This document shows, piece by piece, positions 8,212-54,574 of a DNA stretch of 64,000 nucleotides. The first letter of the stretch is position 1, and each line of letters begins with the position of its first letter. This DNA comes from Escherichia coli (GTDB taxonomy: Bacteria > Pseudomonadota > Gammaproteobacteria > Enterobacterales > Enterobacteriaceae). The notes under the pieces were generated by a model. The model searched no databases. It saw only the letters and a list, made by a program, of their open reading frames with translations, and was not told the origin of the DNA. The stretch lies in assembly GCA_002099625.1 (NCBI GenBank), contig GCA_002099625.1_4857.1; one strand, written 5' to 3'. A program made the translations under genes and the position numbers.

Positions 8212-8246
8212 AAACGCAAAAAAAAGAAAGGGAGCCGAAACTCCCT
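8212..8246 (-). terminator. intrinsic terminator after gene 8254-8583
   Basis: hairpin GGGAG-CCGAAA-CTCCC preceded on plus by GCAAAAAAAAGAAAG (U-tract on the minus transcript). Confidence 0.55.
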
Positions 8247-8253
8247 TCGTGTT

Positions 8254-47383: not shown

Positions 47384-47961
47384 CACGTCGCGCCAAGTTC
47401 CGAACAGGGATCACCATCTTCCCAGTCGAAAGCTGACATGCGTGCCCAGTTAAGTTGAATATCCACTTTATCGATTCGACTCAGTCGTACTGCACGATCT
47501 TCATTGGTAGCCCATTGCCAAATCTTATCTTCATCGTACTTCGTCGAAATGCCCGATGTTGCTTCGCGGAAGTGGTCATCGGTACGCATATACGCATTGC
47601 CTTTGAACACATCCAACCGAGAAAAGCCGTTCTCATAACCAGTCGCCATACCGTCATTATACAACTTACGATATTCCGGCATGGCAACGAGGAATGGCTG
47701 TAAAGCAGCATTGGCGAACTGGAATTCACCCAACTCTTCGATCTGTCTTACCATCTCTACCGCATCGCTATAACGTAATTTACGTGCGGTACTGAATGTT
47801 TCACGGAAACGCTCCAGTGAGATTAAGTCCTGACAATGTTCTTTTACACGGTCAACGAGATCGGGTGCCAGGCTAGACAGCGAAAACGATTCTTTGAATA
47901 CGCTGAGTGCCCCGCTACCTTCGGTCTGTTTCGTCCACACCGTGCTACCTTGTAGCCACAT
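47380..47961 (-). CDS. hypothetical protein
   Basis: 193-aa ORF with AGGAG SD 8 nt upstream; begins right after the stop of the beta'-N exon 2. Confidence 0.6.
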   Translation of the reverse strand: MWLQGSTVWTKQTEGSGALSVFKESFSLSSLAPDLVDRVKEHCQDLISLERFRETFSTARKLRYSDAVEMVRQIEELGEFQFANAALQPFLVAMPEYRKLYNDGMATGYENGFSRLDVFKGNAYMRTDDHFREATSGISTKYDEDKIWQWATNEDRAVRLSRIDKVDIQLNWARMSAFDWEDGDPCSELGATC

Positions 47962-47974
47962 TACAATACTCCTA

Positions 47975-48247
47975 TTAGCCCATCACCGCTTCCAACGGAA
48001 TGCCTTCTTCATCATCCTCATCTGCTTCAATAAGGAACTGGTTCTGCATACTGATTAGCTCGTTATGTAAAACCATGCCGTGTTCTACGCGGTCCACATC
48101 AGTAGAAGACATAAAGCCGTTATCTGGACGGAATTGGAGCGCCAACTTCATCTCAGTTTCATCGACTGGCAAACGTACCTGGAACTGGTCGCCATCAAAA
48201 TCCTGTTTGTCCACTCCAATCCTTTTGGAGCAGGTGTGTAGTAACAC
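47975..48247 (-). CDS. RNA polymerase beta'-N, exon 2 (carries the catalytic DFDGD motif)
   Basis: translation ...LLHTCSKRIGVDKQDFDGDQFQVRLPVDE... matches bacterial beta' ...[24 protein letters not shown]; track start is GTG with no properly spaced SD, consistent with a spliced exon. Confidence 0.65.
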   Translation of the reverse strand: MLLHTCSKRIGVDKQDFDGDQFQVRLPVDETEMKLALQFRPDNGFMSSTDVDRVEHGMVLHNELISMQNQFLIEADEDDEEGIPLEAVMG

Positions 48248-48249
48248 CC

Positions 48250-49660
48250 TCCCTAACTTTCATTAGGGCACAGACCATACCTTAGCCATGAGCTTTCGCT
48301 TTTAGGCTCCTCCCCACTTCGGCGCTATTCTAAGCACCTACGAGCATTTCAGCTCCGGTCGTTGAACGTTCCTCTTACGAGGCTTCGCTGCTGATTACCC
48401 ATTGTTAAAACCCTTAGCAGTATTGTTTAGCATAGGTCATCTCATTACTTGTTTCCGACTTTCGTCTCCACATGGGCAAATGAGCTTTAGGGGTTCCCAG
48501 CAATTCAGGGAGATACACATCAGAGGTTTCCCGTCTGATGGGGCAAGGTTATTCTGCTGTTAAATATTGAACTTCAAATTGTTTGTACTTTCCAGTTTGT
48601 GAGACTGCTTTGGCCACAGTGTTTCTTTTCACACCAATCGCGTTTGAAAACTCTTGTAGAGAATTCCAAATGGTTTTGATATTAGTGGTCGTATCAGTCA
48701 CACGCACCATCGATGGTACACGTTTTGGCATTTGTGATTGTGGTCTGGGTTTGCGGAGATCGATCATGTCGGTTATGGCAACATCGATATCCACCATATA
48801 CCACGCCTCATATCCAAACTTAGTCAAATCGACGGTACCGCCGTTGAGGTGAGAATAGATGAGGTGTGGTTTTATACCCACGTATTCGGCTGCTGCCGGT
48901 ACAGACGAGAACAGGAAATATGGTTCCTTACCAACCTTTCTGATGACCAGTCCTTTATTACCTGGTCCTGAGTTCTTGCCAATAGAATTCTTGGTGAGAA
49001 TCCAGTCGTCTGCCGGTAGCTTGACTTCAAACACATCATTTAGCGTGTATTGACGATTAAGTCCACGCGTGATCGAGCTTGAAACCAAGTGCCGATTAAC
49101 GCCGATATACTCAGCTGCCTTAGCCATGCTACGGAACTGAACTATATCGCCGGTCTCGAGATTTCTGACATCGACAATAATGTTGTCAGTTCTTAGACCA
49201 GTATCGAAAGCATGATTAACATTTTCCTTTCGATAACACCACTCAAGGTTTACCACAGATGGATTACTCTTAACACCATCACGATGGTTAACCTCGTCAC
49301 CACATTTATCCAGGAACACAGTCGCAACAATTCGATGTAAATGGGTTTCGTCTTTACAACCGCGCACTCCCAGGTATCCACTTTTGAGAATGAAGACCGG
49401 TAGCGGCATGACCATACCTTTTACTTTACAGTCACCCAATGCATCAACAAAGAGATCACGATAGACTGGGTGTCTGTAATACCCCTTAAAAACATACGAG
49501 GGCTCTAAATCATCGCGTAGTTTCCTACTCAACTTTTCAATAATCACAATTTATTCCCTATTACCAGTCACCGACTAAGAATAAGGAATAGCAGAATAAC
49601 ACTTTTACCGTTAGCCATCTTGATCACACGGTCAGAGATACGCAGCGAACACTGGTTAAC
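48250..49660 (-). mobile_element. putative group I intron with embedded HNH homing endonuclease, interrupting the beta'-N gene (boundaries approximate)
   Basis: conserved beta' sequence is interrupted between ...NPTLVQLSIQ... (exon 1) and ...DFDGDQ... (exon 2); between them an HNH ORF and ~300 nt of hairpin-rich non-coding sequence (48250-48548). Confidence 0.55.
48549..49547 (-). CDS. HNH homing endonuclease with NUMOD-like DNA-binding repeats
   Basis: 332 aa; HNH motif ETHLHRIVATVFLDKCGDEVNHRDGVKSNPSVVNLEW; three repeats of the type AAEYIGVNRHLVSSSITRG / AAEYVGIKPHLIYSHLNGG / FSNAIGVKRNTVAKAVSQTG. Confidence 0.85.
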   Translation of the reverse strand: MIIEKLSRKLRDDLEPSYVFKGYYRHPVYRDLFVDALGDCKVKGMVMPLPVFILKSGYLGVRGCKDETHLHRIVATVFLDKCGDEVNHRDGVKSNPSVVNLEWCYRKENVNHAFDTGLRTDNIIVDVRNLETGDIVQFRSMAKAAEYIGVNRHLVSSSITRGLNRQYTLNDVFEVKLPADDWILTKNSIGKNSGPGNKGLVIRKVGKEPYFLFSSVPAAAEYVGIKPHLIYSHLNGGTVDLTKFGYEAWYMVDIDVAITDMIDLRKPRPQSQMPKRVPSMVRVTDTTTNIKTIWNSLQEFSNAIGVKRNTVAKAVSQTGKYKQFEVQYLTAE

Positions 49661-50974
49661 ATCGGTAACAACTTCATCGATGTACAGCGTTTGAATAGAC
49701 AACTGTACCAGCGTTGGGTTACGTAACGGTATGACCATGATCCCAAGACCGCCTGGGGATTCACGAATCAGTTCTTTAAAGATTTCATCTACAAGCGGGT
49801 CATACTGCATTGCCGCTTTTGCAACGATACGTTCACATTGCCGTGACGAATAACCCCGTCGTAGCAGTTTGTTCTCGATGTGGGTCGACATCAACCCAAC
49901 CATCCAACGCCATGGTGCTTTTAACTTCCAGGCATCGTGTGGTTCTGAGATAGGTGAGATGGTTGCACGACCACCGAACGGGATATGGGTAGAACCCAAT
50001 TTCGCACGATAGTCACCCGGTTTACCTTCCATAGACTCACGACGGAAGTCCATGTGGAAGTATGTTAACTGACGGTTGGCTTTCAAAGCGCGACTAATCA
50101 GAAAACGTGGTTCGATCGCTTTACGCCGCGTATAAAGTAACGCGATATTTTTCACCGCATCGATAGCACCCGTGAACACTGGGTCTACCATGACACCACG
50201 ACGACCTTCCTCAGTAACGATAAGCTTAGAGGAGATTAGCGGTAAGTGTCTTGGGAAGAATGCATGGCGTTGCGTTTCGAATAGCTCCTTCCATTGTAAA
50301 CGTAAGCGTTCACCTTCAGCGGCGTTATGCCGATTAGGTGCGAAGATTTCCTTCCAGGCTTCCGGCGTGGTAAGGATGTTAAAGATACTAACGTGGTTAT
50401 CAACCAGATTGCGCAAGCCACGAACGAAACCGTGTTCTTCCAATACACGTTTCACAGCATGTGCGCGTTTACCGTCTGGTTCTTCTATACGGTAATACGG
50501 GTCAATCATCCACATCATCAAGTCATTACCGCGTTCGATAGTGACCTTGTTACGTTCAAACTTCTTCAACTTGCTATTAAAGAAAGCATTGAACATTGCC
50601 CAGAATCGTGGGTTGACGAAGTTACCCATTTCATCAGGTGCACGTAACCAGACATCGGATTCAATTCGATATTCAGTTACAACATAGCCACACGTCGGAC
50701 ACTTACAACCGAGATTGTAACGATGCGCGATCGGTGCCGGACAATCCAAACTACAAATCGGTGCAGAGTTCAGTTCTTCGTCAACGATTCTGTTCTGTAC
50801 CATGCGATCGATAAGTTCAGCAACTTCGATCGCATCCCCGTTAACGGCGACATCGTTAATAATAGTGGGTGGTTTAATACCTTTGGCAGCAGCTTCTATT
50901 TGCAAATCGGACAAATAGTTATCCTGACTAACCAACCGGCCGGATATTCCGTAGAATTTTGGTACCTTTCTCAC
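49568..50974 (-). CDS. RNA polymerase beta'-N, exon 1 (3' end of the ORF runs into the intron)
   Basis: N-terminal zinc finger CSLDCPAPIAHRYNLGCKCPTCGY; IPLRNPTLVQLSIQ resembles bacterial NRAPTLHRLGIQ; the last ~30 codons of the track ORF are probably intron sequence read in frame. Confidence 0.75.
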   Translation of the reverse strand: MRKVPKFYGISGRLVSQDNYLSDLQIEAAAKGIKPPTIINDVAVNGDAIEVAELIDRMVQNRIVDEELNSAPICSLDCPAPIAHRYNLGCKCPTCGYVVTEYRIESDVWLRAPDEMGNFVNPRFWAMFNAFFNSKLKKFERNKVTIERGNDLMMWMIDPYYRIEEPDGKRAHAVKRVLEEHGFVRGLRNLVDNHVSIFNILTTPEAWKEIFAPNRHNAAEGERLRLQWKELFETQRHAFFPRHLPLISSKLIVTEEGRRGVMVDPVFTGAIDAVKNIALLYTRRKAIEPRFLISRALKANRQLTYFHMDFRRESMEGKPGDYRAKLGSTHIPFGGRATISPISEPHDAWKLKAPWRWMVGLMSTHIENKLLRRGYSSRQCERIVAKAAMQYDPLVDEIFKELIRESPGGLGIMVIPLRNPTLVQLSIQTLYIDEVVTDVNQCSLRISDRVIKMANGKSVILLFLILSR

Positions 50975-50987
50975 TCTGTCAACCTCA

Positions 50988-51030
50988 ACAAAAAAAGAGG
51001 GAAGGACGGAGGCGTTAGCCCCCGTCCGTT
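50988..51030 (-). terminator. intrinsic terminator after the 617-aa gene
   Basis: imperfect hairpin GGACGG...CCGTCC preceded on plus by CAAAAAAAGAGGG. Confidence 0.45.
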
Positions 51031-51056
51031 TCCTAACTACTCAGTAACCGATTCGA

Positions 51057-52910
51057 TTACAGTTTGAAGTTGCTCAGAGACACGCCCAGACCGAAATCGG
51101 AACCGCTTGCAGACAGGCCGTTGCCAGACAGCGTGAAGTCTTCCCCACCGTTGTTGAAGAACAGAGAGGTCGCCATCGTGTTGTAGGCATTTACACCAGT
51201 CATAGACCAGGTGCAGTTGTTACGGACGAAGTCCAGCAGGCATTTACCGAAGATCGGGTTGATAGCCATATCCAGAGATTCACCGGTAGCTTGCGGTGCT
51301 TTGGATGCGAACAGAGAAGCGGCCAGTTTCAGCATGTAGATACGCTGTTGACGCTCGTTCAGTTCACGGTGGCTGTAGGACTGTGCGTTCAGGTAGCTAT
51401 AGACGTCGTTCGCGTTATCACCCAGTTTGGTAACAACGGAAATCAGGTCCATATCCTGGAAGCTACGTTTCTGTGCAGTACCGGTGTAAACACCGGAAAC
51501 AGTCGGTACGGCTGCTTTCACGATGTGGCTGCAATGGATGGTACCATTGAAGGCATCGCCCAGCTGTGCTTTCAGTGCAGAAGCAAATACTGCAGTGAAG
51601 CTGGTCGCTGCAACAACTTCGCCGTTCTGATCACGCGGGGACATGGAATTCAGAATAGCGAGCAGCTGTTTCAGAGAGTTGTCGTAACCGACCGCAATTT
51701 CAGACAGCATAGTAGACAGACCACCCAGACCGTTACCGGCACGATGGCTAACTACCAGTGCTGCTTCACGCGGTGCGAACATATCCAGGCAACCTTCGAT
51801 AGCTTCACGGCTACCGTCGATTTTGGATACATCAGGACGAGCGTCAGCACCCCAGGACAGGTATTCTGCCACACGGGAGAACTTGCGATCTTGTTTGTTC
51901 AGACGTTTCACAAACAGGTCACGCCAGCCACCGATTGCCGCGATTTCTGCAAATGCAGCCAGCAGCAGCAGTTGACGTTCATACGGTGCCATTGCACCTT
52001 CAGTTTGAGAATCGACCAGACTTACTACGATTTCAGCCTGCAGCTGTTTCAGGTCGTAGACGCCGTTAACGACAGGCTTCTGACCGGTGAAACGCATGTT
52101 GACGAAACCAGTACCGGATACACGCGGATACACCTGTACCTGATTGGTGTCCAGCAGAGTCGGAGTGGCGTCGGATACGTTGCTTGGGCTGTGCTCAACG
52201 GTGATTGCGAAATCAGCACGTTGTGCGTGGCCGTTAGCATCCACAACCGCACCATCTTCCAGCGGCATTACTGCAGCCTGATAACGGTCATGCTTACGCA
52301 GGTTCAGCGTACCCAGGTAGCCTGCGATACGACCGAAGATGCCCATCATCATCTGACCCATCAGAGTACGTGCCCACTCAGCATCCAGAACTTTACCCAG
52401 GTCTGGTACGGAGTTGATGATCATGAAGTTCGCATTGGTCAGACCATGCGCTTCCATGATGTTTTTCTGTACTACTGCCAGCACGTCTTTGTTGAACAGT
52501 TCAGTGATGGTGTAGTAGTCTTCCTGGCCGTTGTTGGTAGTTTCTTTCAGACGCAGAGACTGACCGCGTTCAAAGAAGATAATACCGTACAGCCAGTGGC
52601 CCTGCCATTGGCCTGCGACATACGCCGCGGAACCCATTTCGTTACCCACGCCGGCGATGGTGCCCCAGCGGAACGCGTTGAGGTATTCGTTGCTTTTCTT
52701 CAGCTCGTCCAGGAGGTTGACGAAGTGCATTGCATAGGTGCTGATGTTGCGGATGCCAAATGCGTTATCGAATTGGCTGACAGTAGAAGTACCCGGCACA
52801 GCAGTTTGCACTTTTACAGTCTCGTTGCCCAGACCGCCCAGTGGTGCGGTGTCTTGAGTCTGAGTGTTGTTCTGCTGAGCGTTGTTGTTAGAGTCAACGA
52901 TTTTTACCAT
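51057..52910 (-). CDS. hypothetical protein; candidate phage-nucleus shell protein (chimallin-like), speculative
   Basis: 617 aa; low-complexity N- and C-termini; own promoter-like elements and terminator; lies immediately upstream of the beta'-N gene, the arrangement I recall for phiKZ gp54-gp55; no sequence-level verification possible here. Confidence 0.3.
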   Translation of the reverse strand: MVKIVDSNNNAQQNNTQTQDTAPLGGLGNETVKVQTAVPGTSTVSQFDNAFGIRNISTYAMHFVNLLDELKKSNEYLNAFRWGTIAGVGNEMGSAAYVAGQWQGHWLYGIIFFERGQSLRLKETTNNGQEDYYTITELFNKDVLAVVQKNIMEAHGLTNANFMIINSVPDLGKVLDAEWARTLMGQMMMGIFGRIAGYLGTLNLRKHDRYQAAVMPLEDGAVVDANGHAQRADFAITVEHSPSNVSDATPTLLDTNQVQVYPRVSGTGFVNMRFTGQKPVVNGVYDLKQLQAEIVVSLVDSQTEGAMAPYERQLLLLAAFAEIAAIGGWRDLFVKRLNKQDRKFSRVAEYLSWGADARPDVSKIDGSREAIEGCLDMFAPREAALVVSHRAGNGLGGLSTMLSEIAVGYDNSLKQLLAILNSMSPRDQNGEVVAATSFTAVFASALKAQLGDAFNGTIHCSHIVKAAVPTVSGVYTGTAQKRSFQDMDLISVVTKLGDNANDVYSYLNAQSYSHRELNERQQRIYMLKLAASLFASKAPQATGESLDMAINPIFGKCLLDFVRNNCTWSMTGVNAYNTMATSLFFNNGGEDFTLSGNGLSASGSDFGLGVSLSNFKL

Positions 52911-54482: not shown

Positions 54483-54574
54483 ACCCTTCCACCCGAATGT
54501 TCATCCCGCCCACTAAAGACCGATCTTCAAACGTAAAGGTTATCGCTTGCGGCTCTGGCTTCCGTGGAACAGAT

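Follow-up and report, generated by a model that had tools for sequence, protein, structure and literature searches.

How does a phage RNA polymerase keep its catalytic DFDGD motif when the motif and the sequence that should precede it lie in separate reading frames? The question is raised by a stretch of DNA of 64 kb (64,000 nucleotides, the whole of it called here the window) from contig GCA_002099625.1_4857.1, which shares ~98% identity with SPN3US, a Salmonella phage, and with related jumbo phages of the genus Seoulvirus. On the minus strand, the coding strand for the genes of the polymerase region, a 468-residue open reading frame (ORF; 49568..50974) has a cluster of Cys residues, CSLDC...CKCPTC, as well as the segment PLRNPTLVQLSIQ, but lacks DFDGD. 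The motif appears downstream, as KQDFDGDQFQV, in a 90-residue ORF that starts with GTG (47975..48247); between the two lie a 332-residue HNH/NUMOD endonuclease ORF and ~300 nucleotides of stop-rich sequence. An initial annotation had read this arrangement as a self-splicing intron with a homing endonuclease in a polymerase gene, and a covariance model, intron-less alleles, junction rules and covariation all support it. In fact, we are highly confident that a mobile IA-type group I intron, with an HNH endonuclease encoded in the loop of its P1 helix, interrupts the gene for the beta'-N subunit of the non-virion RNA polymerase (nvRNAP).

Limits of the insertion and identity of the interrupted gene

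The initial annotation had held that the splice sites could not be fixed by eye, but intron-less alleles and group I rules together give the exact limits. The alleles of SPN3US, MET_P1_082_240, SPLA1a, SEGD1 and SPFM19 differ from the window by the absence of exactly one 1404-nucleotide block, which is the only insertion of more than 100 nucleotides in the window relative to SPN3US. On the sense strand, SPN3US reads ...AAG ATG GCA AAT GGA GAT TTC GAT GGT GAC... and the window reads ...AAG ATG GCT AAC GGT (1404 nucleotides) GAT TTT GAT GGC GAC.... The exon ends with the U at 49607 and the intron begins at 49606, which sets the 5' splice site; the 3' splice site follows the terminal G at 48203 (...ACAG), a base that is invariant across 10 of 10 aligned homologues. 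The sole alternative that preserves the protein is an offset of -1 at both splice sites (GGG GAT); we rejected it because a G at -1 and an A at the intron end break the rules of U at -1 and terminal G. An intein is excluded as well, since, read in the exon frame, the insert runs into stops 12 codons from its start.

When the exons are joined, the predicted RNA reads ...AAGATGGCTAACGGT followed directly by GATTTTGATGGCGAC..., with the junction peptide MANGDFDGDQFQVR. The restored protein has 531 residues, and its alignment with intron-less homologues, one of the checks that the initial annotation had proposed, gives 529 of 531 positions identical to the uninterrupted SPN3US_0023 (gp23). At the DNA level, the junction is GCTAACGGTGATTTT in the window allele with the intron deleted and GCAAATGGAGATTTC in the SPN3US type. 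The insertion point is thus directly 5' of the Mg-binding catalytic DFDGD loop, between Gly456 and Asp457 (...KMANG/DFDGDQ...). The two flanking ORFs exist exactly as first described but, taken as exon limits, they are partly artefacts: the upstream one reads 12 codons into the intron, its unspliced product ending in ...GKSVILLFLILSR with the last 12 residues intron-encoded, and the downstream one starts 45 nucleotides inside the intron. The downstream frame does lack a spaced Shine-Dalgarno sequence: a GGGAGG abuts its GTG with zero spacer and sits in the ribozyme helices P9/P9.1.

Exon 1 matches an RNA polymerase subunit family (PHROG 2987, E 4e-179). The spliced protein finds its best PDB match in chain A of 7ogp, phiKZ gp55 (E 2e-38), in an alignment that crosses the exon junction uninterrupted, the window segment there being KMANGDFDGDQFQV; the next PDB matches are the nvRNAP beta' of phage AR9 (2e-8) and bacterial beta'. 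The interrupted gene corresponds to SPN3US locus tag 0023 (a gp23 homologue), which lies upstream of the nvRNAP genes 0034/0035 and is annotated in SPN3US with a GTG start codon. The virion RNA polymerase (vRNAP) beta' pieces of SPN3US are other genes, namely gp240 (beta'-N), gp42 (beta'-C) and gp244 (PMC5105663). Because of this, and because the best structure match is phiKZ gp55, we assign the gene by homology to the nvRNAP beta'-N subunit. The ratio of non-synonymous to synonymous substitution rates (dN/dS) of this gene is 0.02 in a comparison of the window with SaP7 and Proteus phage 7.

The ribozyme, its guide sequence and the endonuclease gene

The covariance-model scan that had been proposed for the stop-rich stretch was positive. 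The stretch matches the group I intron family RF00028 (48579..48251, minus strand; E 9.7e-11) with 53.4 bits, above the curated gathering score of 50, and is the sole Rfam match in the window, both at the gathering threshold and with E <= 0.1 allowed. For homologues occupying this site, the scores are 58-76 bits (SPLA3 68.9, phiKZ 75.6). We aligned 10 distinct cores from the guide sequence to the terminal G: window, SaP7, Proteus phage 7, SPLA3, EC001/1252, JN03, Raoultella phage VB_ZK_P1, phiKp_32, Vibrio phage 2 TSL-2019/PDCC-1 and phiKZ. RNAalifold recovered from them P2, P3, P4, P5 with three sub-helices, P6, P7.1, P7.2, P8, P9, P9.1 and P9.2. P7 was entered by hand as a pseudoknot, supported by a compensatory swap (C-G in the window lineage, U-A in all others), and two artefacts of the program were removed, a small J8/7 hairpin and a long-range pairing of columns 3-4 with 402-403.

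Several measures support this consensus. Standard pairs fill 94.9% of its cells, as compared to 37-43% after a shift of the 3' partners by 1-3 columns, and 45 of the 87 pairs have changes on both sides, as compared to 10-18 after the shift; no shuffle out of 500 reached the observed pairing and covariation values. The single-sequence minimum-energy fold of the window core yields the same helices (z = -2.77). P7.1 and P7.2, which carry 3 and 4 compensatory pairs respectively, are extra helices between P7 and P3'; for this reason the modelled fold places the intron in subgroup IA, and we assign no finer class.

The P1 helix ties the ribozyme to its exon. The exon and guide triplets are GGU/GCC in the window and SPLA3, GCU/GGC in VB_ZK_P1 and in L022 (a relative found on an IMG/VR contig), GAU/GUC in Vibrio phage 2 TSL-2019 and AAU/GUU in phiKZ. 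Across five lineages, the two pairs next to the U.G wobble of the 5' splice site covary with the exon, and the wobble itself never varies. This matching of guide to exon triplets, seen in every lineage, supports the P1 model as well as the assigned splice sites. In SPLA3, which has no endonuclease, P1 is a simple hairpin (GGU/UC-GAAAA-GA-GCC), whereas the P1 loop of the window is 1 kb long and contains the endonuclease ORF, 5' of the ribozyme core. A long-range stem, the top-ranked inverted repeat of the intron, closes this loop around the ORF. Its counterpart in L022 is UUUAUUCUG/CAGAAUAAA, and stems of other sequence bracket the ORF in phiKp_32 (14 bp, 100%) and phiKZ (18 nucleotides, 89%); in the four lineages it is structure, not sequence, that is conserved.

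The 332-residue protein encoded in the loop contains two stretches of NUMOD1 (54.4 bits, cut-off 22.8), matches the PHROG 59 HNH endonuclease (E 3e-28) and gives a weak I-HmuI_NUMOD-like match (18.8 bits). Its only PDB sequence match is I-HmuI (1u3e), a weak one (E 0.003) confined to the catalytic domain, in which the H...N...N motif is aligned (EVNHRDG...NLEW...ENVNH in the window, VVDHKDG...NLRW...INVEN in I-HmuI). The ORF does not share the frame of exon 1, in which a stop is reached 12 codons past the 5' splice site. Full-length identity is 64% with the L022 intron ORF, and identity is 21-26% with phiKZ gp56 and the phiKp_32 ORF. The GTG of the window ORF aligns with the ATG of L022, and the N-terminal region is conserved also in phiKZ gp56; the shorter, ATG-initiated endonucleases annotated in SaP7 and Proteus phage 7 therefore probably start too late. 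With a dN/dS of 0.14 (window, SaP7, Proteus phage 7), the endonuclease is kept by selection and is not decaying, and we think it likely that the enzyme is active at present. Just upstream, a hairpin of 11 bp (-17.2 kcal/mol, z = -2.97), kept in L022 with U-A replacing U.G, contains in its 3' arm an AGGGA eight bases before the GTG. The hairpin may limit translation of the endonuclease, and resembles the one over the ribosome-binding site of the T4 I-TevI ORF, by which that ORF is controlled.

The mechanism that we infer is as follows. The last exon bases, GGU, would pair with the guide GCC to form P1, and an external guanosine bound in P7 would attack after the U at 49607. The freed exon would then attack after the terminal G at 48203, joining GGU to GAU, so that the spliced mRNA would read ...KMANG-DFDGDQ... 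with the Mg-binding catalytic loop restored. Meanwhile, the I-HmuI-like endonuclease would be translated from its own GTG, with its ribosome-binding site inside the hairpin, and would nick, close to the point of insertion, the intron-less allele of a relative infecting the same cell. Repair would finally copy the intron, together with a few flanking exon bases, into the recipient genome.

Table 1. Features of the interrupted polymerase gene and its intron; positions are those of the window and paired helices are given as 5' strand/3' strand.
Feature	Positions	Strand	Remarks
Exon 1, nvRNAP beta'-N (by homology)	49607..50974	-	456 codons; ends ...AAG ATG GCT AAC GGT; collinear with SPN3US_0023 codons 1-456
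Exon 2	47975..48202	-	GAT TTT GAT GGC GAC = DFDGDQFQV..., 75 codons + stop; collinear with SPN3US_0023 codons 457-531
Group I intron, 1404 nucleotides	48203..49606	-	starts AAAAGUGUU..., ends ...GGACAAACAG
P1 5' strand: exon GGU + intron AA	49605..49609	-	pairs with UU+GCC at 48546..48542
Closing stem, 5' arm GUUAUUCUGCU	49590..49600	-	long-range; 11-bp perfect core
Hairpin UAUUCCUUAUU...AAUAGGGAAUA	49552..49590	-	3' arm holds the Shine-Dalgarno-like AGGGA of the endonuclease
Endonuclease ORF, 332 residues	48549..49547	-	GTG start; HNH + NUMOD1; I-HmuI-like
Closing stem, 3' arm AGCAGAAUAAC	48548..48558	-	last codons + TAA stop of the endonuclease ORF
Internal guide sequence GCC, P1 3' strand	48542..48544	-	complementary to exon GGU; G.U at splice site
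Ribozyme core	48203..48541	-	RF00028 + consensus fold
P2	48540-48531/48526-48518	-	consensus fold
P3	48513-48507/48315-48309	-	pseudoknot with P7
P4	48502-48497/48394-48389	-	
P5 with P5a-c	48492-48399	-	consensus fold
P6 + P6a	48388-48366	-	consensus fold
P7	48360-48356/48277-48273	-	pseudoknot
P7.1	48355-48342	-	hairpin
P7.2	48338-48321	-	hairpin
P8	48308-48284	-	consensus fold
P9	48268-48251	-	consensus fold
P9.1	48249-48232	-	consensus fold
P9.2	48231-48213	-	consensus fold

Intron states, relatives and competing explanations

A search of viral contigs for close relatives returned 12, one of them with the intron (L022); the wider census comes from GenBank phages, against which we ran megablast with positions 47900-51100. 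In the 30 Seoulvirus records listed and classed, the site exists in three states: intron with endonuclease (3 records), intron alone (6) and no intron (21). SaP7, Proteus phage 7 and SPFM1 match over the full length. In SPLA3, SPLA5c, 1252, EC001, Lh1B and JN03, ~1048 nucleotides are missing, leaving a 356-nucleotide intron without the ORF at the same site. SPN3US, SEGD1, MET_P1_082_240, SPLA1a and other SPFM isolates lack all 1404 nucleotides. Several SPFM records, fragmented into many BLAST pieces (presumably by sequencing indels), and SEGD1, with a 1-nucleotide indel, were excluded from site-by-site counts where relevant.

What travels with the intron? Comparison of 12 Seoulvirus alleles (7 with the intron, 5 without) reveals 74 variable exon sites and a mosaic reshuffling that comes as close as 16 nucleotides to the junction. 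Perfect linkage to intron presence is found at just 3 of the 74, at -7, -4 and -1, all synonymous (window 49600-49613, 48197-48202): alleles with the intron read GCT AAC GGT before the insertion site and those without it GCA AAT GGA. Between -145 and -16, the intron-less SPLA1a equals the window, and from there to the junction it differs at these three positions alone; the intron-bearing SaP7 is SPN3US-like up to -16; therefore, less than 16 nucleotides of 5' exon travel with the intron. More distant intron-less relatives have AAC GGT, GGC or GCC at the junction position, which makes the AAT GGA of the SPN3US type the derived state. The linkage can be read in two ways, either as a minimal co-conversion tract (the U at -1 being obligatory for P1) or as endonuclease resistance of the surviving intron-less alleles.

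The intron cores tell a history of their own. The window core is only 75.6% identical to that of the endonuclease-less Seoulvirus introns, on exons that are ~98% identical, and the endonuclease-less intron is therefore not a deletion derivative of the window intron. The window core is closer to that of L022 (81.9%), whose host protein is only ~71% identical; intron history thus differs from phage history, as it should if the element moves horizontally. The three states fit the classical cycle in which an intron invades, loses its endonuclease, is lost in turn and invades again.

The closest known parallel is phiKZ, where gp55, gp56 and gp56.1 occupy the same host gene in the same order: exon 1, an endonuclease in a stem-closed P1 loop, a core with P7.1/P7.2 and a short exon 2 at DFDGD. 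In phiKZ, gp56.1 starts at ...ADFDGDQ, and the deposited chain 7ogp_A is named PHIKZ055 fused to PHIKZ056.1. phiKZ gp56, annotated as an HNH endonuclease, is homologous to the window enzyme, with HNH and NUMOD repeats. The two introns differ in that phiKZ has its insertion 3 nucleotides upstream (N/ADFDGD versus NG/DFDGD) with the guide GUU instead of GCC, and in that the 3' end of its ORF runs into the guide sequence and P2; identity is ~54% for the core and ~26% for the endonuclease. PMC11512511 cites introns of phiKZ involving gp55, gp56, gp72, gp179 and gp180, referring to Mesyanzhinov 2002 and Ceyssens 2014.

Elsewhere, related introns of the IA type again sit close to the catalytic loop. 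L022 and VB_ZK_P1 share the site of the window (NG/DFDGD or NA/DFDGD), the guide matching the local exon triplet, and in Vibrio phage 2 TSL-2019 and Photobacterium phage PDCC-1 the site is 3 nucleotides downstream (NAD/FDGD). Relative to the window at 0, the insertions around the loop thus fall at -3 (phiKZ), +3 (Vibrio phage) and +12 (a second insert in VB_ZK_P1). This second insert deserves a note in its own right: in VB_ZK_P1 (PV662128, 2484-3185 of the locus) and Klebsiella phage phiKp_32, two inserts flank a 12-nucleotide micro-exon, GATTTTGACGGT (D-F-D-G). The first is a relative of the window intron (RF00028, 63.8 and 58.6 bits). The second, of ~310 nucleotides, runs from AAACGTATTGCC to GTAATGATG, directly before GATACC, with a fold z of -3.9; it has no match in Rfam, even with E <= 10 allowed, and shares a ~90-nucleotide block with unannotated stretches of the Aeromonas jumbo phages CF8, ZPAH34, PS1/PS2, AhC3_1 and ACP1. 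From its topology by eye (P1, P3/P7 pseudoknot, P8), it is probably a divergent group I intron missed by the Rfam model.

The phiKZ parallel may extend to the neighbourhood, since in phiKZ the interrupted gene adjoins one annotated as nuclear shell protein. Directly upstream in the window is a 617-residue ORF (51057..52910, minus strand), in the position of phiKZ gp54 and of the Vibrio phage "nuclear shell protein" (617 versus 626 residues). No similarity was found by BLASTP to phiKZ gp54, by PDB sequence search or in Pfam, and the sole match is PHROG 8316, of unknown function; agreement being in position and size only, we leave the ORF unconfirmed as a nuclear shell protein. Elsewhere, the window lacks ~630 bp of SPN3US at ~8240-8252, including SPN3US_0060 (196 residues, PHROG 23313, function unknown), and at 54511-54574 it has 64 nucleotides in place of ~344 around SPN3US_0019.

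What such an element can do is known from PhiPA3, whose gp210, an HNH endonuclease in an intron of the vRNAP beta gene, nicks the allele carried by PhiKZ and puts PhiPA3 at a competitive advantage (PMC11620839, PMC12908238). As in the window, a putative group I intron there splits a jumbo-phage RNA polymerase gene at catalytic conserved residues (Birkholz et al. 2024, PMC11620839), and relatives able to infect the same host together with it carry the intron-less allele (PMC11620839). The PhiPA3 case differs in its target, the virion RNA polymerase beta gene (gp211/209), interrupted after two conserved Asp, and in that nicking and advantage are experimental there, whereas the window is known from its sequence. 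By analogy with gp210 in Pseudomonas, the intron and endonuclease might be an active weapon with which near-identical nucleus-forming phages compete when they co-infect Salmonella, E. coli or Proteus. The synonymous changes of the surviving intron-less alleles would then be resistance mutations in the recognition site of the endonuclease, and the neighbouring insertion sites would reflect how one intron/endonuclease lineage was retargeted again and again around the catalytic loop, with a co-evolving guide. We offer this as a speculation that we would rather doubt than believe.

Other phage introns share some of these traits. Those of I-HmuI and I-BasI, located in the gene for DNA polymerase in the Bacillus phages SPO1, SP82 and Bastille, resemble the window in endonuclease family, NUMOD-like modules and choice of an essential polymerase gene, and differ in host gene, phage family and position of the ORF in the ribozyme; co-conversion of flanking markers occurs in these systems. 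The T4 td, nrdB and sunY introns (group IA2) are likewise of IA type, with a short P1, P7.1/P7.2 and a looped-out endonuclease ORF. Their endonucleases, however, are of the GIY-YIG or other HNH type and lie in P6 or P9 loops, and their host genes belong to nucleotide metabolism.

Could the gene instead be genuinely split, two polypeptides of ~468 and ~75-90 residues assembling without splicing and the endonuclease being free-standing between them? Jumbo-phage beta and beta' subunits do come naturally in several polypeptides (PMC7598289, PMC5105663), and several GenBank records annotate the two pieces as separate coding sequences. Yet what fills the gap is a group I ribozyme supported by covariation, and sister phages with 98% identical exons lack precisely this interruption. 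The known split site, moreover, comes after the catalytic loop of the double-psi beta-barrel (PMC7598289), whereas the gene is cut here within that loop. In addition, the upstream polypeptide would carry 12 intron-encoded residues at its C-terminus, and the downstream one has no ATG, its only in-frame GTGs lying inside P9.1/P9.2 with no spaced ribosome-binding site. We thus consider a split gene very improbable. Still less credible to us is a decayed relic that no longer splices, the polymerase being a pseudogene or the locus an assembly artefact, even though the Rfam score is only 3.4 bits over threshold and below those of SPLA3 (68.9) and phiKZ (75.6). In the window every helix is intact; the same intron, 98-99% identical and free of helix-breaking changes, occurs in the independent isolates SaP7, Proteus phage 7 and SPFM1; and the gene, at a dN/dS of 0.02, is single-copy and carries the catalytic motif of a polymerase expected to be essential in the cited phiKZ-family literature.

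A more serious contender keeps the splicing and denies the homing unit: the endonuclease gene would be an independent mobile element that invaded a pre-existing, immobile intron. The 356-nucleotide introns of SPLA3, SPLA5c, 1252, EC001, Lh1B and JN03 at the very same site, and endonuclease-less relatives in Vibrio and Photobacterium phages, speak for it. The low identity of the cores (75.6%) speaks against it, as removal of the ORF from the window intron would not yield the endonuclease-less Seoulvirus intron. In addition, homologues (21-64% identical) in the same P1 loop of phiKZ, phiKp_32 and L022 argue for a long joint history, and the exon changes nearest the junction are linked to the presence of the intron, not of the endonuclease. 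We judge this explanation unlikely.

Our preferred reading, a mobile group I intron carrying its own homing endonuclease, has points against it too. Part of the Rfam score comes from a misaligned element, because the P1 of the model (48579-48560) cannot be the real one: its true 5' strand is 1 kb upstream, and the model used the 3' arm of the loop-closing stem, a placement that we rejected. The exon part of P1 is 3 bp only, though of the same length in all five lineages. On the protein side, the Pfam HNH_3 match of the endonuclease (20.1 bits) is under the cut-off of 24.8, the ORF starts with GTG, and the activity and target of the enzyme are predictions. The endonuclease-less introns show that the ribozyme can persist alone, which leaves present mobility unproven. 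Splicing in this phage, finally, is deduced from the DNA sequence.

Annotation and a tractable natural system

None of the intron-bearing GenBank records that we fetched (SaP7, Proteus phage 7, SPLA3, 1252, EC001, JN03) has an intron feature. In OM456492, MT679221, OR413581, PP695294, MN445185 and MT799840, the interrupted gene is labelled as two "beta subunit" coding sequences, as "alpha subunit" or as hypothetical; some records extend exon 1 into the intron, and the endonuclease is called hypothetical. Such split, truncated or hypothetical annotation means that the exon bearing DFDGD is lost from protein sets. The SPLA3 locus (510-935) also has an extra hypothetical coding sequence of 141 residues downstream of the polymerase gene, absent in SPN3US and SaP7 and with no Pfam match.

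A literature search for Seoulvirus together with intron found no report. The kind of element is already established by phiKZ and PhiPA3, and no new principle is involved; what is new is the Seoulvirus example, the three-state polymorphism and the clustering of insertion sites of different phages around the catalytic loop. The main value of the finding lies in the correction of annotations and in a tractable natural system. In fact, SPN3US-like phages lend themselves to genetics, since amber mutants are at hand in Salmonella, and three intron states on a ~98% identical background are ideal for studying intron homing and the length of the co-conversion tract in an enterobacterial nucleus-forming phage. 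The same material suits tests of the idea, drawn from PhiPA3 and PhiKZ, that an intron endonuclease serves as a competition weapon. It also raises the question of how group I splicing proceeds where a phage nucleus encloses transcription and keeps it apart from ribosomes.

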